Source: an uncultured Bacteroidales bacterium
Lineage (GTDB): Bacteria > Bacteroidota > Bacteroidia > Bacteroidales > P3
Assembly: GCA_905233475.1 (NCBI GenBank)
Contig: CAJOEN010000001.1
Location: 62,413 to 126,412, forward strand
Direction: 5' to 3'
Length of the DNA stretch: 64,000 nt
The position numbers and the translations under genes were made by a program. The notes under the pieces were generated by a model. That model was not told the DNA's origin, ran no database searches, and saw nothing but the letters and a program-made list of their open reading frames with translations. This document shows positions 16,441-48,419 of this stretch, piece after piece (position 1 is the first letter of the stretch; every line of letters starts with the position of its first letter).

Positions 16441-16448
16441 TATTTTTG
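16441..16448 (+). promoter_or_regulatory. -7 promoter box (TAttTTTG)
   Basis: TAnnTTTG match 37 nt upstream of the ATG at 16485 and 38 nt downstream of the tandem repeat array. Confidence 0.45.
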
Positions 16449-16484
16449 CAAAATCAAAAAAAAGACATAAAAAAACGCATAAAA

Positions 16485-17759
16485 ATGGGAGATTATAAGG
16501 AACGAATTTTCGACCAGTTGCTCATACAAAAACTGGAAGGCATGGGTGCGGTATTGGTTGAAGGCCCAAAATGGTGCGGGAAGACCACCACAGCCGAACA
16601 TCAGGCCGCAAGTGTGCTATATATGAACGAGCCTAAACGCCACAAACGCAACCTGCAACTTGCCGACCAAGACCCTCAAGCCTTGCTGCAAGGAGCCACA
16701 CCGCGACTTATCGACGAATGGCAGGAAGCACCCAAACTCTGGGACACCATACGTTTCGAGGTGGATCACCGACAAAAGGACGGGCAATTCATCCTCACAG
16801 GCTCCGCTGTGCCAGCCGACATGAGCGAAGTGCACCACACCGGCATTGGACGCATAGCACGTATGCAAATGCGCACCATGAGTTTGTGGGAATCGGGCGA
16901 CTCTACGGGCAGTATCAGTCTGGTGTCGCTGTTTGCAGGCTCCGCTGGCAATGTAGCCACTATGGACAAGACTTTGCAGGAGGTAGCCTTTCTCATTTGC
17001 CGAGGAGGCTGGCCAAGGGCAGTTCTGCAAAAGCCTTCCATAGCTCTCGAACGTGCCTACGACTACCTTAACGCAATAGTAAACCTCGACATATCGCGTG
17101 TTGATGGCGTTTCTCGCGACCCACAACGCACAATGCGCCTCATGCGTTCCTACTCTCGTTTCCAAGGCGGACAAGTACCCATCGCCAAAATACGTGAGGA
17201 TGTGATAGCCAACGGCGACAGCTCTTTCGATGAAAAAACGATATTCTCTTATCTCAACGCCCTGAAAATGATGTTCGTTATAGAGGATATGCCGTCGTGG
17301 AACCCCAACCTGCGTTCCAAAGCCGCGATACGCACCACCGAAACACGCTATTTCACCGACCCGTCCATTGCCGCCGCCGCTCTCGGCCTCGGGCCAAAGG
17401 ATTTGATGAACGATTTGGAAACCTACGGCCTGCTATTTGAGGCCATGTGCGTAAGAGACCTCCGAATTTATGCACAAGCCATAAATGGTCTCGTGTACCA
17501 TTACCGCGATTCCGACGGTCTCGAATGCGACGCCGTTATACACTTGCGCAACGGCGACTACGGACTTGTAGAAATTAAACTCGGCGGCGACCGCCTTATT
17601 GAAGCGGGTGCCAAAACTCTGCATAAACTGCACAAGAAAATCGACACCGACAAAATGAAAGAGCCCTCGTTTCTTATGGTTTTAGTGGCCAACGGCGATT
17701 TCGCCTACAAACGCCCCGACGGAGTGTGGGTTGTCCCAATCGGAAGCCTGAAGCCGTAA
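16485..17759 (+). CDS. AAA ATPase with DUF4143 / PD-(D/E)xK-like C-terminal domain
   Basis: P-loop GPKWCGKTT and C-terminal ECDAVIHLRNGDYGLVEIKLG (D...ExK nuclease-like motif). The ATG at 16485 (MGDYKERIF) is preferred over the TTG at 16446 in the ORF track. Confidence 0.8.
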   Translation: MGDYKERIFDQLLIQKLEGMGAVLVEGPKWCGKTTTAEHQAASVLYMNEPKRHKRNLQLADQDPQALLQGATPRLIDEWQEAPKLWDTIRFEVDHRQKDGQFILTGSAVPADMSEVHHTGIGRIARMQMRTMSLWESGDSTGSISLVSLFAGSAGNVATMDKTLQEVAFLICRGGWPRAVLQKPSIALERAYDYLNAIVNLDISRVDGVSRDPQRTMRLMRSYSRFQGGQVPIAKIREDVIANGDSSFDEKTIFSYLNALKMMFVIEDMPSWNPNLRSKAAIRTTETRYFTDPSIAAAALGLGPKDLMNDLETYGLLFEAMCVRDLRIYAQAINGLVYHYRDSDGLECDAVIHLRNGDYGLVEIKLGGDRLIEAGAKTLHKLHKKIDTDKMKEPSFLMVLVANGDFAYKRPDGVWVVPIGSLKP

Positions 17760-20582: not shown

Positions 20583-20590
20583 CAAAGTTA
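20583..20590 (-). promoter_or_regulatory. -7 promoter box (TAacTTTG on minus strand)
   Basis: Reverse complement of caaagtta, upstream of the DUF805 gene. Confidence 0.4.
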
Positions 20591-20775
20591 AGTGTTTTTT
20601 TACAATTTCAGAAAAAAATTATCAAATAATTCTACAGAAAAAAAATAATTTACTGATTAACAATATGTTATATAAGAATATTTTTTGACAGATAAAATTT
20701 CCGGGGACAAAAAAGCTTTTTTTCTTTGTTTCTTGCAATTTTTGATAATTTTACGGTCACACACCACCAAACGAA

Positions 20776-20938
20776 AAAAATCGCACCTTTGCATTTCGAT
20801 ACCTCTCGAACGTAACTACCCCCTTGGCGAGGCAAAACAAAAAATCTCCGAAATAGCGGGACAGATTCTAAATCGCAAGGAATACAGCCGCCTGCGTTTC
20901 ATCCCCGACGTGGATCCGCAGTAAAACGTGCGATTTTT
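20776..20938. repeat. Perfect 11-bp inverted repeat (aaaaatcgcac / gtgcgattttt) enclosing 141 nt
   Basis: Arms at 20776-20786 and 20928-20938, read directly; located at the left edge of the R-M island. Confidence 0.8.
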
Positions 20939-20982
20939 GACTATTTCTTGTGTATTTGCTTGAAAAACAATTGGTTGATAAT

Positions 20983-21180
20983 ATGACCCTCTATACAGAA
21001 TATGAGCTATTTACACGGGAGGTTTATCACCAATTGTCGAACTACAACAATTCAGATATCACAAACTTCAGCACAACATAAAACTAAAAGGCTGCGTGGT
21101 GTTCCATCGGCTCTGCCAACTACGAAGGCCTGCGAACCTTATAAGTGAACTCGTGGCCGCCCCGCTTCACATTTAAGCAG
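20983..21180 (+). pseudogene. Possible decayed fragment of a restriction-endonuclease-like (Mrr/NucS-type N-terminal) gene
   Basis: A 32-codon ORF (MTLYTEYELFTREVYHQLSNYNNSDITNFSTT*) continues after a -1 shift as QHNIKLKG... This resembles the FE..v.eiy..L....v.HNvKL.G block of one endonuclease family. It is truncated and interrupted. Confidence 0.3.
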
Positions 21181-21277
21181 TATTAAAAAACTTGAGGGTC
21201 AATTGTCACCAATAGCTGTTTTTTTTCCTCAGAGCAGTCGTGTGAAAGGTACCAGTTTCTGTCTTTTCTTCTCCTTA

Positions 21278-22540
21278 TTATTCAGATTCTTCAAAGTCTA
21301 TTCTGTCAATTAGGAACCTAAATGAAGAACTGCCGAAGCACATGTCAATTTCACTCTGGGAAAATCCCAGAAGGTCAAGTATACAGCAGGAAAGGAGTAT
21401 TTTTGCTTTTTGTGTTAGGCGGAAAAGTTCATCACCTCTGACGATTTTCTTTCCTTCATCTTCTTCATCTGGAATAAGGTGAGAGTATTTATGTCTTGTG
21501 TCTGCCATCATTTGGCAATCAATGTGACATTTTCTAACAGACTCCACTTTATCAAAATGATTTATCATCGCTTTTATCTCGTCTTCGTATTTCCGAATAT
21601 CTTTGCCATCCTTCTTATTCAGAAACCTTTTGTGATAGCCATCCAACGCCTGAGCGACAATTAAAAAATCTGGGGCGTCAAATTCGTCATAGTTTATTGA
21701 AGACAAAAGATAGTTGCAAATCTGAGAGATTTGCGGATAAATGCGATGCCAAGTGGTTAGAATTTCTGGTACCTTCTTTTGAAATTTATTAAAAGGAATT
21801 AGTGAAAAACTGTTTGGATTAACAGACATGTCGACTTTATAGAATAACTGACAGAATGAACTTTTGTCATCTTTTATCAACCATATATCAGTAGGCTCCT
21901 GTTTCGAGAAAAGAGCCAATGACAAGAATTGTGAATATTCTGTTATACAGTCAACAAAGAAACTCGGAGAAGACAACGTTGTTGTGGTAAATGACAGATA
22001 TGTCGATTGCGTAATACTCGTATCGTATTTGTCGTGTTTAAACTCAATATGTCTGTATATATGGAGCTTCGTTTTTTCATCTATTTGTGCATCGACAAGA
22101 ACGTGGTCTTGTTTTCGGGAATCCACAACAAAATCGTACACATCTTCTTCCAGCTCGGTTTTCTTCACTTTGGGAATAAAAGCCCAGTTCCGGAGATATG
22201 GATAACTGACGACGCATGTTTTAAACATAGCCTCGTGCCCAGTTTTGATATGCACCCCAACCAATACTGCATGAGCCTTAAAACTTGCCTGAAAGCACTT
22301 GGTTTCTTCAAGCATTTCTAATCCGAACACGGATATCTTACGTCCGTCAGCAACCTCTCCCCATACCACATCATACTTATCACATACTCGAAAAACAGCT
22401 GAGTTTCTTTGGTCATGATAAATCTCCAGTTTTGAAGAGCCATCCTTTTCAACTATTAATGTTCCCATACAGGCGACATCTTTGAATCGCCTTACTCCAT
22501 CCGGAGCCCACCATCTACCATGAAAAACTTGATTAGTCAT
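21278..22540 (-). CDS. ApeA-like HEPN-domain protein (predicted abortive-infection RNase), last gene of the type I R-M operon
   Basis: 420 aa. The N-terminus FHGRWWAPDG...CMGTLIVEKDGSSKLEIY resembles the ApeA N-terminal domain pattern (G.W.p....GtL....g..Lel). C-terminal alpha-helical region carries the Rx4H motif TRHKYSH (R349-H354, nt 21479-21496). The start lies 10 nt after the hsdS stop. Confidence 0.6.
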   Translation of the reverse strand: MTNQVFHGRWWAPDGVRRFKDVACMGTLIVEKDGSSKLEIYHDQRNSAVFRVCDKYDVVWGEVADGRKISVFGLEMLEETKCFQASFKAHAVLVGVHIKTGHEAMFKTCVVSYPYLRNWAFIPKVKKTELEEDVYDFVVDSRKQDHVLVDAQIDEKTKLHIYRHIEFKHDKYDTSITQSTYLSFTTTTLSSPSFFVDCITEYSQFLSLALFSKQEPTDIWLIKDDKSSFCQLFYKVDMSVNPNSFSLIPFNKFQKKVPEILTTWHRIYPQISQICNYLLSSINYDEFDAPDFLIVAQALDGYHKRFLNKKDGKDIRKYEDEIKAMINHFDKVESVRKCHIDCQMMADTRHKYSHLIPDEEDEGKKIVRGDELFRLTQKAKILLSCCILDLLGFSQSEIDMCFGSSSFRFLIDRIDFEESE

Positions 22541-22550
22541 ATATACATTG

Positions 22551-24041
22551 CTACGCTTTTAGTTTGTCTATTTCGTGTATTAGTTTCTCTATCTTCGCCA
22601 CAATGCGACGCTGCTCGGCGAGGGGTGGAAGGGGAAATGGTTTATTCTCTAAATATCCCACAACTATTCTCTGTTGATTAGCAGTACCTTTAAAAATCGC
22701 TTCGTCTATAAAGTACGAGGATTCTAGAAAAAACAACAAATACTTTCTATCAATGGTTTCCGAATATTGTCTTAAAACCTTTAGCTCTGTTGTCCCTGCG
22801 CCAATTCCATCAGGAAGTCCATCTAATATCATTGATTTTCTATTCTGAAAACAAGGTGTGATTTTAGCAAAAGCCACATCACCATCCGCAAAACATGTAA
22901 ACGTTTTTTTTATTTCACCCCATTTCCTGATATCATATGAGAATTGCGAACCATAACACGCTACTATTTTCTCCATTGGAATAAAAGCAGCCAATTGATC
23001 ATCTTTTGCTTCAACCTTAGGATTTATTTTGAATACATCGAACACTCTCACCCACGCCCAACTTTCTGGTATCTCGAATGGAATTTCGTCTTCGGTTATG
23101 GGTTTTACTTCCAGATCTTTTTTCTTGAGTTTGCCTTCTTTCACCAGACGTTGTTTTTCCTCGCGGATGCGTTCCAATAAGGCCGAAGCGGGTTCGTCGG
23201 CTGGGTCTTGCGGGACGAGTTTGCCTTGTATGGCTTCTTGGAGGATGCTCTTTTTGAGTTTTTCGGGCAGGGAGTTGTTCCATTCTTCGAGGGCTTCTTG
23301 TGTTTCGCCGTATTTCTCCACCAAAGGCATCAACTCCTCTATCTTTGCCACTATGCGGTGCTGCTCGGCAAGGGGGGGAAGAGGAACTGGCATCGCTTTT
23401 AGAACCTCAAATGGTGGAATATTCTTTATTGCAGAACCAGATCCCTTAAGTTTATTCTCAACAAGAAGAATATATTGAAAATACAACAGCCAATATGGTA
23501 TTATTGAATCAAGATGTAGTTTGGCTCTCATTAAGGCCTGATTGATAATGCCAATTGGAGCCTCCGACGGCAAAAGATAAGTTTCTCCAATAGTACCAGC
23601 GCAACTAACAATAATGTCACCCGGACGAACGGTAAACCCCGTCATCGCTTCATATTTCTCTTTTGAAATATAATACTCGCCCAAGGAATAATCCTTCTGA
23701 ATAGCATTTTTCTGTTCGTAAACCTTTACTGCTTCATCTGTATTTGGAACAAACATGGATTTAGTAAGACTACTGCCAAAAGGTCCTTTTTTATATTCAC
23801 CAAGCTCTCCCCATCTTACCCATTCCCACCCTTTAGGAATCTCAAAAGGAATCTCGTCTTCGGCAATGGGTTTCACCTCTAGGTCTTTCTTCTTCAGTTT
23901 GCCTTCTTTCACCAGTCTCGCCTTTTCGGCACGAATCTTTTCGAGCAGCACGGAGGCGGGCTCGTCGTTGGGGTCTTGGGGGACAAGTTTGCCTTGTATG
24001 GCCCACTGTAGTATACTGTTTTTTAGTTGTTTTCCGGTCAT
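22551..24041 (-). CDS. hsdS: Type I restriction-modification specificity subunit HsdS
   Basis: 496 aa with two target-recognition halves, each followed by the conserved PLPPLAEQ[HR]RIVAKIE helix (aa 219-243 and 469-493) and each preceded by a ~70-aa K/E-rich linker. Confidence 0.9.
   Translation of the reverse strand: MTGKQLKNSILQWAIQGKLVPQDPNDEPASVLLEKIRAEKARLVKEGKLKKKDLEVKPIAEDEIPFEIPKGWEWVRWGELGEYKKGPFGSSLTKSMFVPNTDEAVKVYEQKNAIQKDYSLGEYYISKEKYEAMTGFTVRPGDIIVSCAGTIGETYLLPSEAPIGIINQALMRAKLHLDSIIPYWLLYFQYILLVENKLKGSGSAIKNIPPFEVLKAMPVPLPPLAEQHRIVAKIEELMPLVEKYGETQEALEEWNNSLPEKLKKSILQEAIQGKLVPQDPADEPASALLERIREEKQRLVKEGKLKKKDLEVKPITEDEIPFEIPESWAWVRVFDVFKINPKVEAKDDQLAAFIPMEKIVACYGSQFSYDIRKWGEIKKTFTCFADGDVAFAKITPCFQNRKSMILDGLPDGIGAGTTELKVLRQYSETIDRKYLLFFLESSYFIDEAIFKGTANQQRIVVGYLENKPFPLPPLAEQRRIVAKIEKLIHEIDKLKA
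23046..23255 (-). repeat. Intragenic direct repeat copy 2 in hsdS (encodes aa 263-332)
   Basis: Encodes KSILQEAIQGKLVPQDPADEPASALLERIREEKQRLVKEGKLKKKDLEVKPITEDEIPFEIPESWAWVR. About three quarters of nucleotides match copy 1 by eye; the longest exact runs are about 17-20 nt. Confidence 0.85.
23814..24023 (-). repeat. Intragenic direct repeat copy 1 in hsdS (encodes aa 7-76)
   Basis: Encodes KNSILQWAIQGKLVPQDPNDEPASVLLEKIRAEKARLVKEGKLKKKDLEVKPIAEDEIPFEIPKGWEWVR. Confidence 0.85.
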
Positions 24042-24044
24042 TGT

Positions 24045-24920
24045 TTAATCCTCCTGCTCGTAATAGTATGAATAGTCAATGCCTTTCATAAAGATTTCGC
24101 GGTCGTCAATCTTGTCAGTCAACGCTCCTTTGAGCAGTTCTCGGATGCGGCTGCTGTCGGTATGGCTGGCTATCATCGCATCGAGGTAGTCTTTCTTGTC
24201 TATCCGGCTCCAATCCACACACACCTTCATCCGTTTCTTGAATATCAAGTCGAGCCAGATGCGTGTCGAGCGGCCGTTGCCCTCCATGAAAGGATGGGCG
24301 GCGTTCATCTCCACATATTTGTCCACAATTTCATCGAATGTCGTTTCCGGCATCGCCTCGACTGTTTTCAGATAGCTGTGCAGATGCTCCGCCAGACAAA
24401 ACAGCGTGTTGCCCTTGGCTATCGTCTTTGTGCGTATCTTGCCGGCAAAGTCGTAAAGGCCGCCGAACAGATAGGCGTGAATCTGCTGCAACGACTTCAC
24501 TTTTCCCACATCATTACTGGCCACAAGGTTGCTTTCCCAGAGGGTGTAGGCTTTCTTGCGGCTCTGCCCGTCGATAGTGTTGTCGCTGTAGGTAAACCAG
24601 TCGAGGAATGCACTTGCTCGGTTGTTTGGATAGTGTTTCGCCAATGTCTGCACACATTCGGTGTCCAGTGCATCGGCAGCATGGCGTTTGCCGTCGGGGG
24701 CAACAAATTTGAACTGGTTAGTGACACTAACCAGTTGGATACCGTCTTTGGCCATCTTGCCCTTCAAGTATTTCCAATAGTTGCGGGATTTAGCATAGTC
24801 CTCTTCATCGTTGATGGCCTGCACAATATCGGTTGCCGAGAACCACCACTTGCTATTTTCCTCGTCCCATACGGCTCGCACCTTATGGTCTTTATAAAAA
24901 CGGATAGATGTCTTGCTCAT
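24045..24920 (-). CDS. Bro-N-like DNA-binding domain fused to a Fic/DOC domain protein
   Basis: 291 aa. The N-terminus IRFYKDHKVRAVWDEENSKWWFSATDIVQAI fits the Bro-N/KilA-N-like pattern. Canonical Fic motif HPFMEGNGRSTR at aa 209-220 (nt 24261-24296). The start overlaps the hsdM stop (ATGA at 24917-24920). Confidence 0.85.
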   Translation of the reverse strand: MSKTSIRFYKDHKVRAVWDEENSKWWFSATDIVQAINDEEDYAKSRNYWKYLKGKMAKDGIQLVSVTNQFKFVAPDGKRHAADALDTECVQTLAKHYPNNRASAFLDWFTYSDNTIDGQSRKKAYTLWESNLVASNDVGKVKSLQQIHAYLFGGLYDFAGKIRTKTIAKGNTLFCLAEHLHSYLKTVEAMPETTFDEIVDKYVEMNAAHPFMEGNGRSTRIWLDLIFKKRMKVCVDWSRIDKKDYLDAMIASHTDSSRIRELLKGALTDKIDDREIFMKGIDYSYYYEQED

Positions 24921-26443
24921 AGCGCCTCCCCGTTTATTTCAATTCCCAATATCCGCTCTATCTCGGCCAACGTGCGGTCAATCTCGTGGTCGAGGGCGGC
25001 GCGTTTCTTATAGTAGTCGGCCAGTAGCTCGGCAGGCGGCAGGATTTCTTCCTCGTCCTTGGGGAACTTGCACTGGTCGAAGTTGCAGTCCATATCGAGC
25101 AGCTGCTGAGCGGTGAAGCAGCGCGACTTTTCGTCTGTGATATTACCGTCATTGTCTTTTGTGAAGATTTCCTTGCGGTCGGTCCACCAGTCGCGGATAG
25201 GCTGACAGTGCTCCACGCGCATAGGTTTGGTCTTGCTGAAATGCTTGTAGCCTTCGGGCATGTCCAAACGATAGAACCAAGTTTTGTTGGTGCTGAATCC
25301 CTCTTGCGCGCCCTCGGCTTTCTCGTTGTTGAAGAAAAGTATATTGGTGGCAATGCTGGTGTAGGGCGAGAAGATGCTGCCGGGCAAACGGATGATGGTG
25401 TGCAGGTTGAACTCACGCAAGAGTTTTTCCTTGATGGCCAGCTTGGCGTTGTCAGTGCCAAACAGGAATCCGTCGGGCAGGATAACTGCAGCGCGACCTT
25501 TCCTGGCCAGACGATACATGATGACCACCATAAAAAGGTCGGCGGTTTCGCTCGAGGCGAGGTCGGCCGGGAAATGGCGTTTCACCTCGTTTTTCTCGTT
25601 GCCGCCGTAGGGGGGATTCATCAGGATGACGTCAAACTTGTCATCGTCGGTATAGTTCAGCACATCCTTGGTGAGCGAGTTGTCGTGCATCACCTTGGGC
25701 GAATCGATGTCGTGCAGCAGCATATTGGTAACGCACAACATGTAGGGAAACTGCTTCTTTTCTATGCCGAATATAGAGCGGGCGTAGGCTTCGCGGTCCT
25801 CGGCTGTCTTCACTTTCTTGTCGAGCTCTTTCAGCCACGAGGTGATGAAACCGCCCGTGCCACAGGCAAAGTCGGCCATCGTCTCGCCAATCTGTGGATT
25901 GACAATCTCGGCCATGAAATCGGTAAGGGCACGAGGAGTGTAGAACTCACCAGCCGAGCCGGCAGACTGCATCTCTTTAAGAATCGATTCGTAAATCTCG
26001 CCGAAAGCATGACTTTCTTCGTAGTTACTCAAATCCAATTCATCAATCACATTCAGCACCTGACGGAGCAAAACACCGTCTTTCATATATTGGTTGGCAT
26101 CCTGGAAGGTGGCACGCACTATGGCGCTTCGCATCGGAGTATTAGGGTTAACCTCAAGATTTTTCAACGTGGGGAATAGCGTGTTGTTGACGAAATCAAG
26201 CAGTTTGTCGGCTGTCAGCGCTTTTCCGTCGCCGCTGTCCTTAGCCCAATTGCGCCAGCGGCAGTTTTCAGGGATGAAAGATACATAGTTGTCCTCGTTG
26301 AATTCCCAGTCGTTCTCTTTCTCGTCGTAAACTTTCAAAAACAGCATCCAAGTAATCTGCTCAATGCGCTGGGCGTCGCCGTTGATGCCCGCATCGTTGC
26401 GCATTATGTTGCGGATGCTTTTTACAAAATTTGTAAGAGCCAT
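24917..26443 (-). CDS. hsdM: Type I restriction-modification N6-adenine DNA methyltransferase subunit HsdM
   Basis: 508 aa with an HsdM_N block (GDAQRIEQITWMLFLK), SAM-binding DFACGTGGF and catalytic NPPYGG. Confidence 0.9.
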   Translation of the reverse strand: MALTNFVKSIRNIMRNDAGINGDAQRIEQITWMLFLKVYDEKENDWEFNEDNYVSFIPENCRWRNWAKDSGDGKALTADKLLDFVNNTLFPTLKNLEVNPNTPMRSAIVRATFQDANQYMKDGVLLRQVLNVIDELDLSNYEESHAFGEIYESILKEMQSAGSAGEFYTPRALTDFMAEIVNPQIGETMADFACGTGGFITSWLKELDKKVKTAEDREAYARSIFGIEKKQFPYMLCVTNMLLHDIDSPKVMHDNSLTKDVLNYTDDDKFDVILMNPPYGGNEKNEVKRHFPADLASSETADLFMVVIMYRLARKGRAAVILPDGFLFGTDNAKLAIKEKLLREFNLHTIIRLPGSIFSPYTSIATNILFFNNEKAEGAQEGFSTNKTWFYRLDMPEGYKHFSKTKPMRVEHCQPIRDWWTDRKEIFTKDNDGNITDEKSRCFTAQQLLDMDCNFDQCKFPKDEEEILPPAELLADYYKKRAALDHEIDRTLAEIERILGIEINGEAL

Positions 26444-26481: not shown

Positions 26482-28839
26482 TTATGCGATATTTGTATAA
26501 ATTAATGTTTCCAGTTCTTTCACTGCGTCGAGATACTGTTTGTTGCCGCCAAACATTTTGGCAATGTTGGCTGGAGAGCCCATCTTTCGAAATGGGTCGA
26601 GGCTTAGCACCTTGCGGTTTTCCAATTGACTGATACCTTCATTCATATATTTGTCGAGCAGGGCGTCGAGCACCTTCTGGGCCTTTGGTCCGTATTTACT
26701 GAAAATGTCACGTTTTTTCACATTCTCCGCACGTTCGCGACGTGTGAGGGGTTTCTTGCCGTAGGCGATATGGCAGATAAAATCAAAATCGTCAACATCG
26801 GCCATGCCTTGGTCTTCCTTCAAAGCCTGCAGGTCAATACCATTATCAAGCAGCAAATCCGTGATTTCGGCTTTCTTTTCGGCGGCATTCCATTGTTGTA
26901 TAAAATCGTCAAAGTTGGCGTATGTTTCGTTGATGTTCTTCTTGGTATAGTCGGTGATGCTTTCGGTGCGGAGCAGCTTTCCGTCGGAATCGTAAACCGA
27001 CACTACCCTTTTTATTATTTCCACCCTGCAACCGTTGCGGTCAACGATGGGTTTTGGTTCTGCCACAGATGTTGTTTCGGCTGGGTCGGTGGGATAAGGT
27101 TTGGGGCTATTGTTGTCGTGTTCGTTTTCTTTACCATAACCGTCATCCACCTCGATAGGTCCATCCCAATCGGGATCGGCAAACAGGCGAGTGATGTTGC
27201 GGAAATCCATAATGAAGAAGTGTGTCTTCCCTTCTTTTTCACGGATACGCGTACCTCGGCCTATAATCTGCTTGAACTCCGTCATGGAGTTGATGTTTTG
27301 GTCGAGCACTATGAGCTTCACCATTTTGCAGTCCACACCAGTGGAGAGCAGTTTGCTTGTTGTGGCGATGACAGGATATTCTGATGAAACGGAGATGAAA
27401 TAGTCAAGTTTGCTTTTCCCATATTCGTCGGTACCAGTGATGCGCACAACGTAATCGGGATTTTTCTTGCACATATCCGAGTTTTCGTTGACCAATGCCA
27501 CTCTCATTCTTTCAGCATGGTCTTCGTTGGCGCAGAAAACAATGGTTTTGTTCATTCTGCCCGTTTGTTTCAGATAGGCAGTTATTTCGTGTGCTACCTC
27601 ACGTATGCGGTCTTCAATGATTATATTGTAGTCGTAGTCGGTATTGTTATAAATGCGGTCTTCGATAAGATTTCCAAAGATGTCGCGCTGTCCTTTGGTA
27701 GGTCGCCATTCATCGCCGATGTTGGTTTTGATGTTTATTACCTTATATGGTGCCAAAAAACCATCGTCGATACCCTGTTTCAAACTATATGAATATAGGG
27801 GTTCGCCAAAATAGGTGATATTAGACTGGTAGCGTGTTTCCTTAGGAGTTGCAGTCATACCAAGTTGGATAGCTCCTTCGAAATATTCGAGTATTTCACG
27901 CCAGTTGCTGTCGTCCTTTGCACTGCCACGATGGCACTCATCAACAATCACCATATCGAAGAATTCCGGTTTGAAAAGCTCCTTGTAATTCTGCTTACCA
28001 CCTTCGCCGATAAGTTGCTGGTAAAGAGAGAAATATATTTCGTGGGCGGTAGTTTTGGAATCTTTGTCATGCTGGTAGTTGACCTTATGGATAACATTGG
28101 CGAGAGGTTTGAAATCCTGCTCAATAGATTGATCGACCAACACATTTCTATCAGCAAGGTAGAGTACCTTTTTAATTATATCGGCCTTTAGCAGACGATA
28201 CACGATTTGAAAAGCTGTATATGTCTTTCCCGTGCCAGTAGCCATTACGAGCAGCATGCGCTTCTGACCACGAGCTACCGCATCCACAGTTCGGTTGACG
28301 GCATTGCGCTGGTAATAACGCGGCGGAAAGATGTCTTGTCCGGAGCAAAAAGGTTGATTTATCACCTTCAATTCATCGTCGGTAAAGCCTTTGCCTTCGT
28401 TGCTTTCTGCAAGAAAACGTGCATATAATTCTTTTTTTGTAGGAAACTGATCCATGGCAAAAGATCGTTCTTTACCCGTGAGAAAGTCGTATTCCTGAAA
28501 ACCAAATCCGTTGGAACTAAAAGCAAAAGGTATGTCCATCATCGAGGCATACTCCTTGGCCTGTTGCATACCATAACTAACCGAATGATTGGCATCCTTG
28601 GCTTCCACAATGGCAATGGGCGTAGCTGGATTGTAATACAACATATAGTCGGCAAATTTCGGCTTTTCACGAACCACAAAATTGCCTTTGATATTTACTT
28701 TGCCGTCGGTAAGTTTTATTTTTGTCTCCATCGTGATATCCGTCACCAACCACCCCTTATTCTGAATAGCAGGGGTGATGTATCGCAGTTTTATGTCTTC
28801 TTCCGACAACTGTTTGTTTTGTAAAGTGATTTTTGTCAT
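26482..28839 (-). CDS. hsdR: Type I restriction enzyme endonuclease/helicase subunit HsdR (short, EcoEI-like form)
   Basis: 785 aa with an N-terminal HSDR_N block (EEDIKLRYITPAI), Walker A MATGTGKT, DEAH box VDECHRGS and helicase C motifs (TEFKQIIGRGTR). Confidence 0.9.
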   Translation of the reverse strand: MTKITLQNKQLSEEDIKLRYITPAIQNKGWLVTDITMETKIKLTDGKVNIKGNFVVREKPKFADYMLYYNPATPIAIVEAKDANHSVSYGMQQAKEYASMMDIPFAFSSNGFGFQEYDFLTGKERSFAMDQFPTKKELYARFLAESNEGKGFTDDELKVINQPFCSGQDIFPPRYYQRNAVNRTVDAVARGQKRMLLVMATGTGKTYTAFQIVYRLLKADIIKKVLYLADRNVLVDQSIEQDFKPLANVIHKVNYQHDKDSKTTAHEIYFSLYQQLIGEGGKQNYKELFKPEFFDMVIVDECHRGSAKDDSNWREILEYFEGAIQLGMTATPKETRYQSNITYFGEPLYSYSLKQGIDDGFLAPYKVINIKTNIGDEWRPTKGQRDIFGNLIEDRIYNNTDYDYNIIIEDRIREVAHEITAYLKQTGRMNKTIVFCANEDHAERMRVALVNENSDMCKKNPDYVVRITGTDEYGKSKLDYFISVSSEYPVIATTSKLLSTGVDCKMVKLIVLDQNINSMTEFKQIIGRGTRIREKEGKTHFFIMDFRNITRLFADPDWDGPIEVDDGYGKENEHDNNSPKPYPTDPAETTSVAEPKPIVDRNGCRVEIIKRVVSVYDSDGKLLRTESITDYTKKNINETYANFDDFIQQWNAAEKKAEITDLLLDNGIDLQALKEDQGMADVDDFDFICHIAYGKKPLTRRERAENVKKRDIFSKYGPKAQKVLDALLDKYMNEGISQLENRKVLSLDPFRKMGSPANIAKMFGGNKQYLDAVKELETLIYTNIA

Positions 28840-32286: not shown

Positions 32287-33612
32287 TTATAAAAATGGCG
32301 TGAAATATACCGGCAGACATTTGGTTTGTCCATCTGTCTGATAATCTTTGGTGTATATCAAATATCTGTCATTGATGCGTGACGAGTATTTCTGACAAAA
32401 GGCATCCAACGACTTGTGCGTTTTATAGCCCGAGGATTTCACTTCGATAGGACAAAGCTTGTTGCCACGCGACAACAAAAAATCCACCTCGTAATTGTGG
32501 TTGCTCTCAGTTGGGAATGTATGATAGAACAATTCATTACCCGTACTTTTCAGCATCTGTGCAACCAAATTTTCGTAGATGTATCCCAAATTGGCTTCAA
32601 GCTTGTCGCTCAACAACTTGCTATAGATTGTGTTTTCGGTAAATGCTTTGTCGCGAAAAGCAAGGGTGATAAAAAGGCCTGTGTCGGCGACAAACATTTT
32701 GTAACGGTAAATGTTTTGCGACAGAGGCATACCCACATTCGGGTCATTGATATGGTAGGCCAATAGTATTGTCATACTGTCAGCCATATCTGCAACCACG
32801 CTTGCTACACGTTGCGCATCTTGATTTTCCAAAACACTTGAGATCTGGTATCTGCCAGAATTGTTTGTAAGTTGCGAAGGTATGGCGGCAAACAATTGTG
32901 AAGCTCTGCCTGTATTGTCAATTTTGTTGAAGTCGTCTTGATACAGCTCTATTATTTCTCTTTTAATGTCGTCAACTGCCTGCAAATTATTTGTTTGCAG
33001 ATATGCGTCGATAGATTGCGGCATACCGCCGACAAGCATATACAAACGTAAGTCACGCATTATTTTGCGATGCGAGCTCCCCAATGGCTGTCGTAATTCC
33101 CGGAACTTATGCAGCGTATCGAATGTGGTGGTGTTGCCCAAAGCCCAATAAAACTCCTCGAAGTCCATTGGATATAATGTAAGACGGGTTTCTTCGGATG
33201 GGATAACAATATCTTTCACATTCTTTTTAATGCTTAATAGCGAACCTGTTTCGATATAGTCGTATCGTCCGTCTTTCACCAAGTATTTAATGGCTTGTCG
33301 CGCAATAGGTTTGAGTTGTATTTCATCGAATATTATGACGGATTCTCGCTTATATAGTTTTACCCCGGTTTCTACCTCAAGACGCATAAAAAATAAGTCC
33401 AAGTCGCTAATATCATCAAAAAGTTCGTTTACCTTTTTGGAAACATTTGCAAAATCGATTAGGATATATGATTTGTATTCGTTTTTCGCAAATTGAAGAG
33501 CCAAAGTGGACTTGCCCACTCTCCTTGCCCCTTTTATCAGCAAAGCCGTAGTGCCTTTGCGCTCTCTTTTCCATTTGAGCATCTGCTCATATAATTTCCT
33601 CTTGAAAACCAT
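32287..33612 (-). CDS. AAA ATPase with DUF4143 / PD-(D/E)xK-like C-terminal domain (second, divergent paralogue)
   Basis: 441 aa with P-loop GARRVGKST, Walker B IIFDEIQ and C-terminal YEVDFLLSRGNKLCPIEVKSS (D...ExK). Confidence 0.8.
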   Translation of the reverse strand: MVFKRKLYEQMLKWKRERKGTTALLIKGARRVGKSTLALQFAKNEYKSYILIDFANVSKKVNELFDDISDLDLFFMRLEVETGVKLYKRESVIIFDEIQLKPIARQAIKYLVKDGRYDYIETGSLLSIKKNVKDIVIPSEETRLTLYPMDFEEFYWALGNTTTFDTLHKFRELRQPLGSSHRKIMRDLRLYMLVGGMPQSIDAYLQTNNLQAVDDIKREIIELYQDDFNKIDNTGRASQLFAAIPSQLTNNSGRYQISSVLENQDAQRVASVVADMADSMTILLAYHINDPNVGMPLSQNIYRYKMFVADTGLFITLAFRDKAFTENTIYSKLLSDKLEANLGYIYENLVAQMLKSTGNELFYHTFPTESNHNYEVDFLLSRGNKLCPIEVKSSGYKTHKSLDAFCQKYSSRINDRYLIYTKDYQTDGQTKCLPVYFTPFL

Positions 33613-43589: not shown

Positions 43590-46500
43590 TTATTTGAATG
43601 AGTTCAAATCAACGGGACGCATTGTGCCAAACCATTTGATAACCCTTTCGCCTATGCCCGGTACCGATACATGTATCAGATACATACCACCTGCGATAGG
43701 TATTCCTATATGGTTTTTCAAATCCCAATCAAGAGTGTAGCCTCTGTCGGCATTGCCCGCGTCGGTTGGCGATGGTCCCAATTTACGTACCAAAGTTCCG
43801 TCAACTGTGTAGATGGAGATTTTTGAGTTGGCCGGCAGATTTACAATTCTAACCCTGCTATCCAACTGGCTCGAAGTCTCGTATTCCGAAGAGCTGTAGT
43901 AGGGGTTGGGGACAACAGTGATATTGTCAAGCAATGTCTGTTTGTCCATACGGCCTCCTGCTTGGTTGGTAAGGGTAATCAAATCGTCGGTCATTTCGAA
44001 CATATACATGGGGTTGTTGGCGTTCTGCAATGTCTTGCCCACTTGTGAAGGAGCTGTTTGGTTAGGACTGTAGTACATGGAATACGGACGTCTAACCGAA
44101 ATGTCGATGGTTACATCGCAAGGTATGTCCTTAGGATTGTCGAACATAAACTTGGAGGATACCATAGGCATGCTTACCCAAGCCACACTTGAGAAGAGCA
44201 GAGCCGCAGAGTCACGTGCCGGACGTACATATTGGTCGTTTTCGCCAAGAAGCAGGCCACCGCAGTATGCCATGTAGGAAGAATTGTCTTTTATGTTCAT
44301 CAGACGGTCTAAGGATTCGAGCATACGTGCAGCCCAAACACCGCCATCATACGAAGGTGTCTTGTAGTATCGAGCTACTATATTATCCGAGTTTCTCGAA
44401 ATGTCGATGAAAGGTTGGTTGTTGGATTTAAGGATATAAATGAAGTGGCCACCACCCATAACGTAGTTCTGGGTTCCGTCCATAAGCGTGCTTACCGGAT
44501 TCCACATCATATCTCTACCGTTGTGCTGTACATAACGAGAGTCTTCACCAAACATGATATTCAGACGTTCGCCAGTCTCCACATCAATTGCATAGCCCGG
44601 GAACCAGCCCATACCATATTTTCTGTCGTATGTGGTGTCGATATTACCATTCTTATCAACAGAATAGGCTTTTCTCATTTGGAAACGCAAAGCATTGCCT
44701 TCAGACTGTGTCGGGTCATCGCACATTTCCAAAACAGGACAGCGAGTCCATTTCGACTGGTCGGCAGTAATAACTATGTGTACACTTGGAGTGTTGGCAA
44801 GGTCATTGTAGTTCAAAGATTTGTTATGGTACTGAACTTGAAGTTTTCTTCTCAGATAGTTACGTGATTTGTAAAGCATAGCCAAAGGAGCCGAACGTTT
44901 GCGCAACGAATCGAAACGGCTTTCGGGAGCCACGTAATACATAAAGGAGAATCCCGGATGATACTGTCTTGTGGAAACCAAACCGTAAGGAGCCCAAAGT
45001 CCGCCCAAAACATTTTCAAATACACTGTATTTGTCTATGGCAAAACTTTCGGGACGGCCAAGAACCAACTCCTGATATTTGTAATAGTCTCCGTCAAGAT
45101 AAGGTTCGTTTCCGGTGAAATCACTTGTGTCGCCACCACCAGCGAAAGCGGCCCTGTCGCCCTCTGTGAACTGAGCACCTGATCTTATCCAATTGTAAAC
45201 AGGCGAAGCGTCATAGTCGGGAATACCAGAAAGCCATTGCTTGTAGGGATCGGCAAACGACATTGTCGATGACAGCAGAGCGTCTTTATTAACGATACCG
45301 CCAAGGATATTTCTACCATTCAGTACAACCTCGTTAGCAACAGGAGCTACATTGGTTATACCAACAGCAATACCCAAATCAAGGAAGAGTTGTTCGTTAA
45401 AACGACCTATTGTAAAGTCGGAAGTGTCCACGTAAACAGGATTTCCGGAACCGTCTGTGTATATGGGTTCGCCATCCACACGCGATATTGTCCAACGAGC
45501 GTCGTCGCCAACACCATTGAAACGGATGTAGAATTTACCCGGTTTAACATTCAGAGGATCAACAATAGTTACATTGAGCGGACCGTGATTTTCCTTGTAT
45601 GTCGGGTTGGGGATTATACAGGGATCTTCCATTCTCTCGTTCATACCGGAGCGAACAAATTTTCCTGCAGGTTTACCCTCTTCGCCTTTGGCACCCATGA
45701 GCTCCTCAATCGAAGCGTCGGTAAGTTGCAGTGTTATACCGCCATTGCCGTAACCTTCGATACGGGTTATAACAGGTGAAGTGCCGTAGCTAGCTTGTAT
45801 AATGGTACCGCCATTTTCAGCAGAAACAATGTGAGGTATGGCCTTAACAGGTTTTATCTCCTGCTTCCATTCGTTCTGACGACCAGCAAGATACGGGGTC
45901 TTCTGTCCGTCCAGTTTGGAAGCGTCGGATGGAGAGTATTCTTTATAGCGGTTGTGAGCGTAAGCTATCGCAACAAAATAATATTCCTTGTTGTTTACAA
46001 GTTTTGTATTTGTTCCGTTTGCAAACGCGTCAGTTGCAATTCTTATAGAGTGTCTGATACCGGTATTGGAACCCGTTACCATAACTTTCGGTGCAATTGA
46101 ACCTATGGCATTGTCTCTCTCGTAATTTACCAATGTACCAATAGGCAGGGTTTTGTCGGCATCATAATAGTTTTCTATATCGCACTGATAAACCAAACGA
46201 GCTTTTGTATCGTCGCCTATGTCGGCTACAGAAGCGTTGGCATCTCTCAGCTGATAAACCTGATAACCTTCGAATTTGTAAGTTCTCTGCTCTGTTGTAT
46301 AGGTTCTAATTTCAGTAACAGCCGAACCATTTATTATGGTATCATGAGAATAAGTTGTCGGAATTGAGGGATCAATTTCGGCAAAGGATTCGGGAATTCC
46401 GTTTTTATTGTTGTTGGATTCGGTGTTCTCGTATGAAAGATAGAGTATTACCTCGTTGGAGAGTTCCTGAACAGTAACTGTAGGAGCCTCGGGGCCAGAC

Positions 46501-48419
46501 AGAATCTTGAAACAGTTCTCGAACAGAGACTGACATTTGTCATCTATCTGACGGAGAAGTTCCACTGAAGACCATGCGTTGCCCGAAGTGGCCTGTGCAA
46601 AAGGAATACCTACAGTAATGTAGTTTATAGCACCCGGATTAAGGGTGAAGGGTCCTGCCGACTGCATAAAACGGCGGTCGCCTATTGCGTTGCTTGTACC
46701 GCCTTCAGCGGCATTCTTCTCTGTCCATTGGAATCCCGGATCTTCACCGTTGGTTCCCCAGTTCCAAGGATCGCTATCGCCCGGGAACATAAAGTCGCAT
46801 TCCAAAGCGTCTGCACCGCTGTTGATACCATTCTTACCGAAAGTCATACGCGAACCGTCTTTCCAATAGCCTCTCAAATAATAGTAATAGTCTGTAGCTT
46901 TTCCAGGTTCACTGTTGGGACCGCTTGTGCTGTTGTTATAATATACGAAACGGCGCATACCGAAACGTTCGTCATCAACAATACCGTTTCCGAAATTAAC
47001 ACCATTGATAGCACAGTTGCCCACAATATCATCCTTTTGGAAATACCAAGCGTTTATGTAGGCCTCAGCGTTCTCGGTCAATTGTATTGTGTCGTATCCG
47101 GCAAAAGCACCGGTTGAATCATAGATTTCATAGTCGGCCAATGCCCTTTCGTAATAGACTCTCATTTTACTGATGTCGATTTTGGGATTGTCCTTTCCGT
47201 CGGGATCCATGTAAGGACCTTGGAAGAAGTCGATACCAACTGCCGGAGGTATGCCGCTATAGGAGCCTGTTCCGGGACCATCGACATCCTTGCCGTTGTA
47301 GCAGTATCCCAAACCACGTTTCACATCACATCCCACATAGTCGTCGTGAGAATATCCCAAATCCGGATCAACCCACTGGCTGAAATAAGTGTTTTTCAAA
47401 GTATAGGAAGAGCGGTTGATGATTTCGTAGGTGTAGAAAGTCATGTTGTTGATTTCGTCGTTGGTGGCAAAAGCGAAAGCCTGAGCTCTGATTTCGAGAC
47501 CAATTTGTTCGCCTTTGGATTCGGTATGGGAGTTACCCATATCATTGAACACCCACCAAATTGTTTGGTCGCCTTTCAGCACTTGGTCCGAAAGAATACC
47601 TCCGGTGATTTCCTGACCGCCAGTACCCCAAGTTTTTTCCATTGTGGGTGTAGGCTCATATTTTTCACCGGGTTTCAATGCTGCTTTCAGTGTTTTAGGA
47701 CACAGAACGTTATCGAAATCATAATAAGGATAGTCTCCGTTTTCCCAATGGTATTCACCATCGTTATCGGCATCATAGAAAGGTGCTAAATATTTGGACT
47801 GCTTCATTGCTGTGTTGCCGTGTGCAGGCCAGTTTTTGATAACGTCGGGAACGAGGGACTCATCGTAAGAGTCGTTCTTGGTAACCGAGCGGTTGCCTTG
47901 TTCATCCTCCTCATAGTTGAACATCGACATAAAGGTCGATACTTCGGCTTGGGTTATCTTATAATGCTTGTCGTATTCGTTACAAACTTCGGCGGAAATG
48001 GAAGCCGTTCCATCAACTGTAAGAGGACCCGGCCAGTAGTCGTTACCTTCGCTACCGAAACGCAGTGCGGCTATACGCAATTGGTCGTCCACGTCGGTAC
48101 CACCAATCCATAATGCGGCACAGAACATTGCTGTGGAAGTTCCGTCCTTAGGAATGTTGTATTTTGCCAAACTACCGTCGTACCACATATTACCGTAAGC
48201 GTTTATAAGCGCCCTAACGTTGTTTACATTCAATTCTGCGGAACTCTGCGCTCTTTTACATGCCGCAGCTTTCTCCTGCAGTTTCAAACGATTGGCTTTG
48301 GTCTTGTGGCGTTCCCACTCGCAATCGCGGGCCAATGCCGTTCCGAAAAGAGACATGCAAATGAATGCAACTAATCCCGATTTTAAAAATATATTTTTCA
48401 TCTTTACCTTTTTTTTCAA
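43590..48419 (-). CDS. Giant secreted protein (1609 aa) of unknown function with a C-terminal T9SS-CTD / FlgD-Ig-like beta-sandwich
   Basis: Uninterrupted 4.8-kb ORF with a signal peptide. The last ~105 aa read VVPNPYY...VRIVNLPANSKISIYTVDGTLVRKL...WDLKNHIGIPIAGGMYLIHV...IKWFG. The start may be the second Met cluster (MKNIFLK). Confidence 0.7.
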   Translation of the reverse strand: MKKKVKMKNIFLKSGLVAFICMSLFGTALARDCEWERHKTKANRLKLQEKAAACKRAQSSAELNVNNVRALINAYGNMWYDGSLAKYNIPKDGTSTAMFCAALWIGGTDVDDQLRIAALRFGSEGNDYWPGPLTVDGTASISAEVCNEYDKHYKITQAEVSTFMSMFNYEEDEQGNRSVTKNDSYDESLVPDVIKNWPAHGNTAMKQSKYLAPFYDADNDGEYHWENGDYPYYDFDNVLCPKTLKAALKPGEKYEPTPTMEKTWGTGGQEITGGILSDQVLKGDQTIWWVFNDMGNSHTESKGEQIGLEIRAQAFAFATNDEINNMTFYTYEIINRSSYTLKNTYFSQWVDPDLGYSHDDYVGCDVKRGLGYCYNGKDVDGPGTGSYSGIPPAVGIDFFQGPYMDPDGKDNPKIDISKMRVYYERALADYEIYDSTGAFAGYDTIQLTENAEAYINAWYFQKDDIVGNCAINGVNFGNGIVDDERFGMRRFVYYNNSTSGPNSEPGKATDYYYYLRGYWKDGSRMTFGKNGINSGADALECDFMFPGDSDPWNWGTNGEDPGFQWTEKNAAEGGTSNAIGDRRFMQSAGPFTLNPGAINYITVGIPFAQATSGNAWSSVELLRQIDDKCQSLFENCFKILSGPEAPTVTVQELSNEVILYLSYENTESNNNKNGIPESFAEIDPSIPTTYSHDTIINGSAVTEIRTYTTEQRTYKFEGYQVYQLRDANASVADIGDDTKARLVYQCDIENYYDADKTLPIGTLVNYERDNAIGSIAPKVMVTGSNTGIRHSIRIATDAFANGTNTKLVNNKEYYFVAIAYAHNRYKEYSPSDASKLDGQKTPYLAGRQNEWKQEIKPVKAIPHIVSAENGGTIIQASYGTSPVITRIEGYGNGGITLQLTDASIEELMGAKGEEGKPAGKFVRSGMNERMEDPCIIPNPTYKENHGPLNVTIVDPLNVKPGKFYIRFNGVGDDARWTISRVDGEPIYTDGSGNPVYVDTSDFTIGRFNEQLFLDLGIAVGITNVAPVANEVVLNGRNILGGIVNKDALLSSTMSFADPYKQWLSGIPDYDASPVYNWIRSGAQFTEGDRAAFAGGGDTSDFTGNEPYLDGDYYKYQELVLGRPESFAIDKYSVFENVLGGLWAPYGLVSTRQYHPGFSFMYYVAPESRFDSLRKRSAPLAMLYKSRNYLRRKLQVQYHNKSLNYNDLANTPSVHIVITADQSKWTRCPVLEMCDDPTQSEGNALRFQMRKAYSVDKNGNIDTTYDRKYGMGWFPGYAIDVETGERLNIMFGEDSRYVQHNGRDMMWNPVSTLMDGTQNYVMGGGHFIYILKSNNQPFIDISRNSDNIVARYYKTPSYDGGVWAARMLESLDRLMNIKDNSSYMAYCGGLLLGENDQYVRPARDSAALLFSSVAWVSMPMVSSKFMFDNPKDIPCDVTIDISVRRPYSMYYSPNQTAPSQVGKTLQNANNPMYMFEMTDDLITLTNQAGGRMDKQTLLDNITVVPNPYYSSSEYETSSQLDSRVRIVNLPANSKISIYTVDGTLVRKLGPSPTDAGNADRGYTLDWDLKNHIGIPIAGGMYLIHVSVPGIGERVIKWFGTMRPVDLNSFK

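Follow-up and report, generated by a model that had tools for sequence, protein, structure and literature searches.

A predicted HEPN RNase with a beta-rich putative sensor domain, embedded in Bacteroidales restriction operons and not detectably related to the experimentally studied ApeA

Introduction

Is a predicted RNase encoded at the end of a type I restriction-modification (R-M) operon a guardian of the restriction enzyme, like PrrC, or is it an independent layer of defence? This question is raised by a gene of the Pfam ApeA family in a stretch of 64,000 nucleotides (nt) from an uncultured Bacteroidales bacterium (assembly GCA_905233475.1, contig CAJOEN010000001.1, positions 62,413 to 126,412), which we refer to as the window. 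The gene (21278..22540, minus strand; hereafter apeA) was identified as an open reading frame (ORF) with an ATG start, encodes a protein of 420 amino acids (aa), and matches Pfam ApeA_NTD1 and HEPN_Apea and the PADLOC class PDC-S58. It is the final gene of a co-directional block in the order hsdR-hsdM-fic-hsdS-apeA, and only 10 nt lie between the end of the hsdS stop codon (22551) and the apeA ATG (22540) on the same strand. A preliminary description of this locus had reported the 10-nt spacing correctly, and its picture of a terminal hsd-operon gene in a PrrC-like position, with a non-ATPase N-terminal module, was borne out by the Pfam matches, the gene order and the loci of relatives.

The association with restriction systems is in itself already known. 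At least 16 HEPN clades are linked to R-M systems, and the 'ApeA/BMEI1217' clade of Anantharaman et al. (2013), whose N-terminal domain of ~300 aa is largely beta-stranded and contains several conserved aromatics, was listed as embedded in R-M operons in epsilonproteobacteria (PMC3710099). The R-M embedding of the ApeA_NTD1 family, noted in 2013, was catalogued in 2024 in the PDC classes of PADLOC, which derive from genes found inside BREX, DISARM and type I R-M systems and follow the idea of 'guilt-by-embedding' (Payne et al. 2024, bioRxiv 10.1101/2024.01.29.577857). Both the 420-aa protein (PDC-S58) and the product of the fic gene in the same operon (PDC-S04, 521 bits) fall in these classes. 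What is new here is that the name collides with that of the tested ApeA, that in a Bacteroidales clade the gene is nearly always found in restriction operons, in at least four layouts, and that no structural relative was found for the presumed sensor domain. We favour the reading, to which we give about an even chance of being right, that the protein is a latent HEPN RNase with its own beta-rich sensor, forming a second anti-phage layer co-transcribed with the type I R-M operon.

Results

Domains, motif and conservation of the protein

The N-terminal domain of the protein (aa 6-264; 21749..22525, minus strand), which is beta-rich and presumed to be the sensor, matched Pfam ApeA_NTD1 (PF18862) with 91.7 bits against a cut-off of 25.5 (E = 7e-26), covering model positions 2-271 of 271. 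The second domain (aa 293-396; 21353..21664, minus strand), a helical core with the dyad, matched Pfam HEPN_Apea (PF18739) with 47.5 bits against a cut-off of 24.4 (E = 3e-12), and the match spans R349 and H354. These residues are the first and last of the Rx4H motif RHKYSH (21479..21496, minus strand), predicted from sequence and conservation to be the RNase dyad. In the longer string TRHKYSH (aa 348-354), R349 is encoded by nt 21494-21496 and H354 by nt 21479-21481, exactly where the preliminary description had placed the motif, and its assignment of the protein to an ApeA-type family with a HEPN motif was upheld by the two Pfam scores. Two PADLOC models of class PDC-S58 matched as well (PDLC05046, 101.9 bits, E = 8e-30; PDLC05048, 99.7 bits). 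No NCBIfam model matched the protein, and no ATPase family was matched in Pfam, PADLOC or NCBIfam. All of the checked features of the Pfam ApeA/PDC-S58 family were present, namely both domains, the Rx4-6H motif, a beta-rich N-terminus with aromatic residues and the PDC-S58 match, and by the curated Pfam thresholds the protein is classed as a member of the ApeA_NTD1 + HEPN_Apea family.

A word-indexed search returned 354 relatives; the 120 of these that were listed were 403-440 aa long and all contained both Pfam domains. An exhaustive profile search yielded 3,916 clusters (50% identity) at E<=1e-3, the best 150 of which were mostly full-length proteins of ~400-460 aa, the remainder being shorter fragments. 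R349 and H354 were invariant in all of the 57 relatives aligned and in each of 130 sequences that are only 18-39% identical to the window protein, so that the conservation of the motif in homologues, on which the preliminary description had made its proposal depend, was found throughout. In the same 130 sequences G61 was also invariant, and W10, G26, W119, W264, F292, G301 and R305 were nearly so. Positions conserved as Trp, Phe or Tyr (W10, W119, W264, F292 and Y352) occur both within the N-terminal domain and where the two domains join. In a comparison with a 79%-identical relative, the ratio of nonsynonymous to synonymous differences per site (pN/pS) was 0.16; the corresponding ratio of substitution rates (dN/dS), ~0.06, is a rough value, since synonymous sites were nearly saturated. 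These data show that apeA evolves under purifying selection. Because the Pfam E-values are 7e-26 and 3e-12, homologues are many and pN/pS is low, the ORF is not a chance ORF but a real, intact, conserved and selected gene.

Predicted structure and fold searches

An AlphaFold2 model of the protein, built from 57 homologues, had a predicted local distance difference test score (pLDDT) of 88.2 and a predicted template modelling score (pTM) of 0.87. The N-terminal half of the model consists of beta strands at aa 4-190, a linking helix (192-209) and two further strands within 218-234, and the C-terminal region is all-helical, with helices across aa 257-413, in agreement with the earlier claim of a beta-rich N-terminal and a helical C-terminal half. 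Within the HEPN_Apea region the helices are at aa 289-307, 318-328, 342-352 and 370-390, and R349 is at the end of the helix at 342-352. When the C-terminal domain was predicted separately, its pLDDT was 85.9.

We then compared the models with known and predicted structures. A Foldseek search of the full model against the PDB gave nothing significant (best E = 7e-3, template modelling (TM) score ~0.1), and no geometrically sensible match was obtained from the PDB and BFVD together (TM ~0.1, root-mean-square deviation 18-33 A). The Foldseek hits to GFP-like barrels and to phage tail proteins were at chance level and were rejected, as were the hits of single-sequence and family-profile searches against PDB sequences, which were noise only (ribosomal L24/L26, phycoerythrin, Bcl-2-like). 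In these searches nothing in the PDB or in BFVD, a collection of predicted viral structures, was recognisable as a structural relative of the beta-rich N-terminal domain. For the isolated C-terminal domain the best E-value against the PDB was 1.9, and the only HEPN protein listed, Csm6', had an E-value of 3.2, which is not significant. The 9HX* ApeA entries were confirmed in the PDB sequence set, their presence in the Foldseek library being unconfirmed. Thus, of the HEPN fold that the preliminary description had supposed around R349 and H354, the profile part held, in that the Pfam HEPN_Apea match spans both residues, whereas the fold search gave no significant HEPN match. The HEPN assignment, a prediction, draws on the Pfam HEPN_Apea match, on the invariance of the Rx4H dyad and on the helical topology of the model.

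Two protein families share the name ApeA

The preliminary description had equated the family of the 420-aa protein with the single-gene abortive-infection protein ApeA, and we asked whether the two are related. Two preprints of 2026 deal with the ApeA defence protein that Gao et al. (2020) described (10.64898/2026.01.26.701840, 10.64898/2026.03.20.713152). Juozapaitis et al. reported that ApeA cleaves tRNA anticodon loops, that it forms decameric or dodecameric rings, and that it has a ligand pocket, which in Ec2ApeA binds 5'-phosphorylated deoxydinucleotides; Ec1ApeA and Ec2ApeA are ~600 aa long, mainly helical, and consist of N-terminal, Mid and split-HEPN domains (10.64898/2026.01.26.701840). 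Drobysheva et al. reported that the genomes of single-stranded RNA phages are cut by Ec1ApeA (10.64898/2026.03.20.713152). As a comparison protein we recovered Ec1ApeA (601 aa, annotated as 'HEPN family anti-phage protein ApeA'; gene at L037:6001-7803) from an E. coli genome. The genome was found with a query of 399 nt from the start of the gene; the supplementary plasmid table of Drobysheva et al., from which this query comes, gives inserts up to ~400 nt.

Ec1ApeA matched the PADLOC ApeA model with 1389 bits, and neither of the Pfam ApeA models matched Ec1ApeA or 17 of its relatives at E<=1. The window protein did not match the PADLOC ApeA model (PDLC02157) even at E<=10. The model matches are therefore reversed: Ec1ApeA is recognised by PADLOC ApeA only and the window protein by the Pfam ApeA models only. 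BLASTP of the window protein against Ec1ApeA returned nothing, hhalign of the two family alignments gave a probability of 0.2%, and the profile of the window family missed the solved ApeA chains 9hxn, 9hxi, 9hxj and 9hxm, all of which are in the PDB sequence set. Bm1ApeA, a 'minimal' homologue of 467 aa, looks helical and unlike the window protein as judged from its N-terminal 133 aa alone. The genomic setting of Ec1ApeA was viewed in one E. coli strain, where genes for conjugative transfer, among them that of a MobQ relaxase, lie next to it and the 12-kb region viewed contains no R-M gene.

The window protein and Ec1ApeA have in common that each is a single polypeptide with a predicted C-terminal HEPN Rx4H motif (RNKITH in Ec1ApeA, RHKYSH here) and a non-enzymatic N-terminal region for sensing, a presumed function in the window protein. 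Unlike Ec1ApeA and Ec2ApeA, which are ~600 aa long, mostly helical and decameric, the window protein has 420 aa and a beta-rich N-terminal half. Taken together, these sequence comparisons indicate that the label ApeA is applied to two families without detectable sequence relationship, PF18862/PF18739 on the one hand and the ApeA of Gao et al. (2020), RefSeq and PADLOC on the other. The equation with the abortive-infection protein thus had to be given up. The pattern 'G.W...GTL...LEL', which had been taken for the N-terminus of the tested ApeA, belongs to Pfam ApeA_NTD1. A transfer of the dinucleotide-pocket mechanism of Ec2ApeA to the window protein was considered and rejected on the ground that there is no detectable homology. 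If the window protein nevertheless worked like Ec1ApeA and Ec2ApeA, ligand- or RNA-triggered cutting of tRNA or phage RNA would be expected.

Genomic context of relatives

We examined 25 species-level loci, all from Bacteroidales and mostly from metagenome-assembled genomes of rumen and gut, in which ORFs were called and clustered and the clusters were identified by Pfam. The results show that apeA lies inside a restriction operon in 22 of the 25 loci. An HsdM gene is located upstream on the same strand in 19 loci; in two further loci, ended by contig edges, hsdR is directly downstream of apeA; and in L003 the gene upstream encodes a homologue, at 85% identity, of a 730-aa protein whose match to RE_LlaJI is borderline. 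The remaining three loci comprise a contig end, a truncated remnant and an intact stand-alone copy (L026). The usual order is hsdM-hsdS-apeA-hsdR, with optional inserts on either side of apeA, and HsdR is there ~1,000-1,125 aa long. The spacing between apeA and the flanking restriction genes ranges from -8 to +15 nt, and the genes often overlap, by 4-14 nt.

Relatives outside these 25 loci (L028, L038 and L044) were also found within restriction operons. In L038 (79% identity) the order is hsdM-YhcG/DUF1016-hsdS-apeA-GmrSD; there the YhcG/DUF1016 PDDEXK nuclease gene fills the slot that is held by the fic gene in the window. L044 (1-8993; 47% identity) is a phase-variable type I locus with two hsdM genes, hsdS, a tyrosine recombinase gene, a second hsdS, hsdR and apeA, which starts 7 nt after hsdR, and in L028, a distant member, apeA is located between hsdS and a probable hsdR. 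A LlaJI-like operon was found in L041 (3054-12041; 56% identity), where genes for an N4/N6 methyltransferase, a C5 methyltransferase, an McrB-like AAA_5 protein of 660 aa and the 730-aa protein precede apeA; the 730-aa gene, with its borderline RE_LlaJI match, is overlapped by apeA by 14 nt, and a Schlafen/AlbA_2 ATPase gene comes next.

The layouts follow the subclades of the protein. Members at 76-100% identity are encoded after hsdS in an operon of the window type, those at 56-61% in LlaJI-like operons, those at 46-48% after hsdR, and those at 33-40% between hsdS and hsdR. The HsdR partners belong to two unlike families, one of 785 aa with EcoEI_R_C and one of ~1,000-1,125 aa with T1R_D3. 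The pairwise similarity of ApeA correlated with that of HsdM (Spearman 0.44) and of HsdR (0.24), but the pairs are not independent and shared ancestry confounds them, and these correlations are too confounded to decide between coupling and hitch-hiking.

Some members were found in other settings. Three distant members lie directly after a Septu-like pair of an AAA_15/SMC_N ATPase gene and an HNH gene (L031:3131-6626, L032:190-3685 and L029:161-2310), and the family thus also attaches to nuclease systems other than R-M. Another distant member adjoins Mrr-STAND and YobI-ATPase genes, and yet another adjoins two C5 methylase genes and an AAA_5 gene. Both L026 and the viral-contig locus L047 (1-13612) contain an intact gene of the apeA family in an integrase-bearing element (Phage_integrase, AAA_24, DUF3871). 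Restriction genes were not detected near the gene in this element, which holds the only intact stand-alone copy seen. Among 2.9 million viral contigs, 3 contained a relative.

The slot around apeA in hsd operons also holds genes for AbiH, PIN_8, YhcG, GmrSD and Abi_2. Two further occupants of this region were observed. A protein of 1,233-1,238 aa without a Pfam match is encoded directly beside apeA within hsd operons (L007:11320-15021, also L010 and L020) and is a candidate embedded defence gene. An AAA_15/AAA_21 ATPase of ~427 aa and a Pfam-less partner of 194 aa are encoded in four apeA-containing hsd operons (L006:11357-13228, L007, L008 and L010); in L006 and L008 the pair lies directly 3' of apeA, between apeA and hsdR, and in L007 and L010 it is preceded by the 1,233-aa gene. 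The ATPase and its 194-aa partner may form a two-gene embedded system.

The hsd operon and its surroundings in the window

All genes of the operon are on the minus strand. Its first gene, hsdR (26482..28839), encodes 785 aa with EcoEI_R_C at the C-terminus and matches Pfam ResIII, EcoEI_R_C and HSDR_N_2 and PADLOC REase_I (940 bits). It is followed by hsdM (24917..26443; 508 aa; Pfam N6_Mtase and HsdM_N; PADLOC MTase_I, 556 bits). The fic gene (24045..24920; 291 aa), located between hsdM and hsdS, overlaps hsdM by 4 nt, and its product has a Bro-N-like N-terminus and a Fic adenylyltransferase domain (Pfam Fic; PADLOC PDC-S04, as above), with a score of 251 bits against the NmFic-type model of NCBIfam (cut-off 230). 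Directly upstream of apeA is hsdS (22551..24041; 496 aa; Pfam Methylase_S; PADLOC Specificity_I, 427 bits). It carries an internal direct repeat of 218 nt, in keeping with the repeated conserved regions of hsdS genes that have two target recognition domains.

The GC content is 0.382 in apeA, 0.421 in hsdS, 0.441 in hsdR, 0.498 in fic and 0.516 in hsdM, compared with 0.451 for the window. Thus apeA has the lowest GC content of the operon genes, as the preliminary description had judged by eye. An identical protein with the same neighbours is encoded on two metagenome contigs in ENA, and a megablast search of the apeA locus against E. coli genomes gave zero matches. Rfam, tRNA, promoter and terminator scans near the locus gave nothing above background, the promoter scan using a sigma-70 model that is ill-suited to Bacteroidales. 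Downstream of apeA is a non-coding gap of 690 nt (20586-21277) with two imperfect inverted repeats (20615-20752 and 20761-20953), and no noteworthy ORF, tRNA or Rfam match was found in it. The gap could be a regulatory region or an island boundary.

Two other features of the window were observed. The hsd locus is flanked, ~3.5 kb beyond each end, by two AAA_14/DUF4143 ATPase genes (16446-17759, plus strand; 32287-33612, minus strand). Farther away, a Pfam-less ORF of 1,609 aa (43590-48419, minus strand) adjoins the gene for a CarboxypepD_reg/OMP beta-barrel protein of 1,217 aa.

Discussion

The window protein does not differ in kind from the ApeA/BMEI1217 clade, which is PDC-S58; the domains, the Rx4-6H motif, the beta-rich aromatic N-terminus and the R-M embedding are the same. 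The 2013 note of embedding concerned epsilonproteobacteria and the present loci a Bacteroidales clade. The window itself, with its layout hsdR-hsdM-fic-hsdS-apeA and an HsdR of the EcoEI_R_C type, differs from most relatives, in which apeA stands between hsdS and hsdR.

On the reading that we favour, two copies of the protein would dimerise via their HEPN domains, and R349 and H354 of each copy would together form one RNase site, as in HEPN enzymes generally, where two HEPN domains pair into one metal-independent RNase site (PMC3710099). The N-terminal domain would hold the enzyme off until a cue linked to infection is sensed; the triggered enzyme would then cut tRNA or other RNA, which would halt translation, and the infected cell would be arrested or killed where restriction alone had failed to stop the phage. 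The sensor would be self-contained, and the link with restriction would be one of co-expression and co-mobility as layered defence, with no dependence on one Hsd subunit. We favour a self-contained sensor because the adjacent partner varies by locus, being HsdS, HsdR or the LlaJI-like nuclease, because the HsdR families are unlike and an intact stand-alone copy exists, and because those embedded systems that were put to the test proved independent. TgvAB, which is embedded in a type I R-M locus of V. cholerae, works on its own (PMC11411939), and the tested HECs, including the HEPN protein HEC-08, also work independently (bioRxiv 10.1101/2024.01.29.577857). Like TgvAB (PMC11411939) and the HEC and PDC candidates, apeA is a putative accessory defence gene inside a multi-gene restriction locus, with layers that would complement each other. 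The protein families are different from those of TgvAB and HEC-08, the latter being a HEPN protein of the DUF3644 type with zinc ribbons. A three-level defence in which R-M, HEPN and DOC/Fic modules are layered has been proposed (PMC3710099), and the operon in the window combines modules whose expected targets are DNA for R-M, RNA for HEPN and protein for Fic.

Several points weigh against a self-contained second-line RNase. No RNase or anti-phage test of any family member was found in the searchable literature. The mechanistic detail known for Ec1ApeA and Ec2ApeA is, as far as sequence comparison can tell, not transferable because homology is undetectable, so that the published mechanism is an analogy and not an inheritance. 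Neither the full-length model nor the isolated C-terminal domain had a significant HEPN match in Foldseek. Furthermore, the near-exclusive residence in restriction operons and the start/stop overlaps would be equally expected of a coupled guardian like PrrC, and therefore autonomy is not proven.

Such a guardian is a possible explanation, if in our view a doubtful one. Tentatively, the protein might be silenced through its binding to the restriction complex of its own operon, the RNase might be released once this complex is overwhelmed or is disabled by a phage anti-restriction factor, and the beta-rich N-terminal domain could conceivably take the place of PrrC's ABC ATPase as the reader of restriction-enzyme state. 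The residence of 22 of the 25 loci in restriction operons, with a single intact exception, fits this idea, as do the start/stop overlaps with the upstream restriction gene, which suggest coupled synthesis. The commonest order, hsdM-hsdS-apeA-hsdR, mirrors that of the prr locus. Each ApeA subclade has long been faithful to one type of restriction system, and the similarities of ApeA and HsdM correlate, though weakly and over pairs that are not independent. The guardian model has already been proposed for R-M-linked HEPN clades, and a second-line role of PrrC-type nucleases when restriction fails has been proposed as well (PMC3710099; for the latter also PMC12707154). The window protein resembles PrrC of the EcoprrI type IC locus in its predicted C-terminal HEPN-type domain with an Rx4-6H motif, in being encoded within a type I R-M operon and, in its relatives, in the hsdM-hsdS-X-hsdR placement. 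It is unlike PrrC and RloC in that an N-terminal ABC (Rad50/SbcC-like) ATPase was not matched and the N-terminal half is beta-rich, and unlike PrrC in that its partners vary and include systems other than type I. The absence of a constant partner, the neighbours being HsdS, HsdR, the LlaJI-like nuclease or unrelated inserts that separate apeA from the hsd genes, such as AbiH, PIN_8 and YhcG, speaks against a guardian, as do the two dissimilar HsdR families, the intact stand-alone copy (L026/L047) and the distant members in non-R-M contexts. The proposal of the preliminary description, that the protein was recruited into a type I R-M operon as a sensor of the state of the HsdMS/R complex, is weakened by the same diversity of partners and by the stand-alone copy. 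On a broader form of the guardian idea, which we consider unlikely, ApeA_NTD1-HEPN proteins would make up a second class of restriction guardians, one without an ATPase, in which PrrC-like logic is coupled to a new sensor fold. In such a class, and with a similarly low expectation on our part, the beta domain would generically sense the failure or the products of restriction in type I, LlaJI/McrB-like and Septu-like systems and fire the RNase.

The cue need not come from the restriction complex itself. The type I, LlaJI/McrB-like AAA_5 and Septu-like ATPase+HNH systems found beside apeA are all nucleoside-triphosphate-driven nucleases, and they could share a product-type signal. In this case the aromatic-rich N-terminal domain would bind small nucleic-acid fragments from the degradation of invading or host DNA and switch the RNase on, which we regard as quite improbable, and the resemblance to Ec2ApeA, activated by 5'-phosphorylated deoxydinucleotides, would be an analogy that evolved independently, which is just as improbable. 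The conserved aromatics W10, W119, W264, F292 and Y352 would suit such a function, and ligand-activated Ec2ApeA is a precedent (bioRxiv 10.64898/2026.01.26.701840). The proposal is nevertheless purely inferential, the protein has no homology to the pocket-forming domains of Ec2ApeA, and, as the stand-alone copy shows, the gene need not adjoin a nuclease. Still more remote in our estimation is a protein without any phage sensing, whether a toxin that serves addiction or stabilisation or a protein of the hsd operon that binds RNA or regulates without catalytic activity. HEPN domains often act as the toxic component of toxin-antitoxin pairs, and some bind without being catalytic (PMC3710099), and the low GC content of apeA (0.382) suggests acquisition as a mobile module. 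However, no small conserved ORF lies beside apeA in the window and none recurs across the loci, and for this reason we rejected the toxin-antitoxin reading. The strict invariance of Rx4H (130/130) favours catalysis over mere binding, and the neighbouring cargo (AbiH, PIN_8, GmrSD, Abi_2) is of the defence type.

The self-contained second-line RNase remains the reading that we prefer, and the findings bear on the family as a whole. It is large, with thousands of protein clusters, conserved and under selection, and in the Bacteroidales clade it is nearly always located in restriction operons. The mechanisms described in 2026 for Ec1ApeA and Ec2ApeA should not pass to PF18862/PF18739 proteins through annotation. 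The family could be used to test whether R-M-embedded RNases other than PrrC are guardians or independent layers. If the ATPase-free guardian reading were true, PrrC-like logic would have been reinvented and spread over these thousands of clusters. Identifying the trigger of the structurally unmatched sensor domain would add a new sensing module to those described for HEPN defence systems, and the operon in the window illustrates a predicted three-layer arrangement, in which DNA would be the target of R-M, RNA that of HEPN and protein that of Fic.

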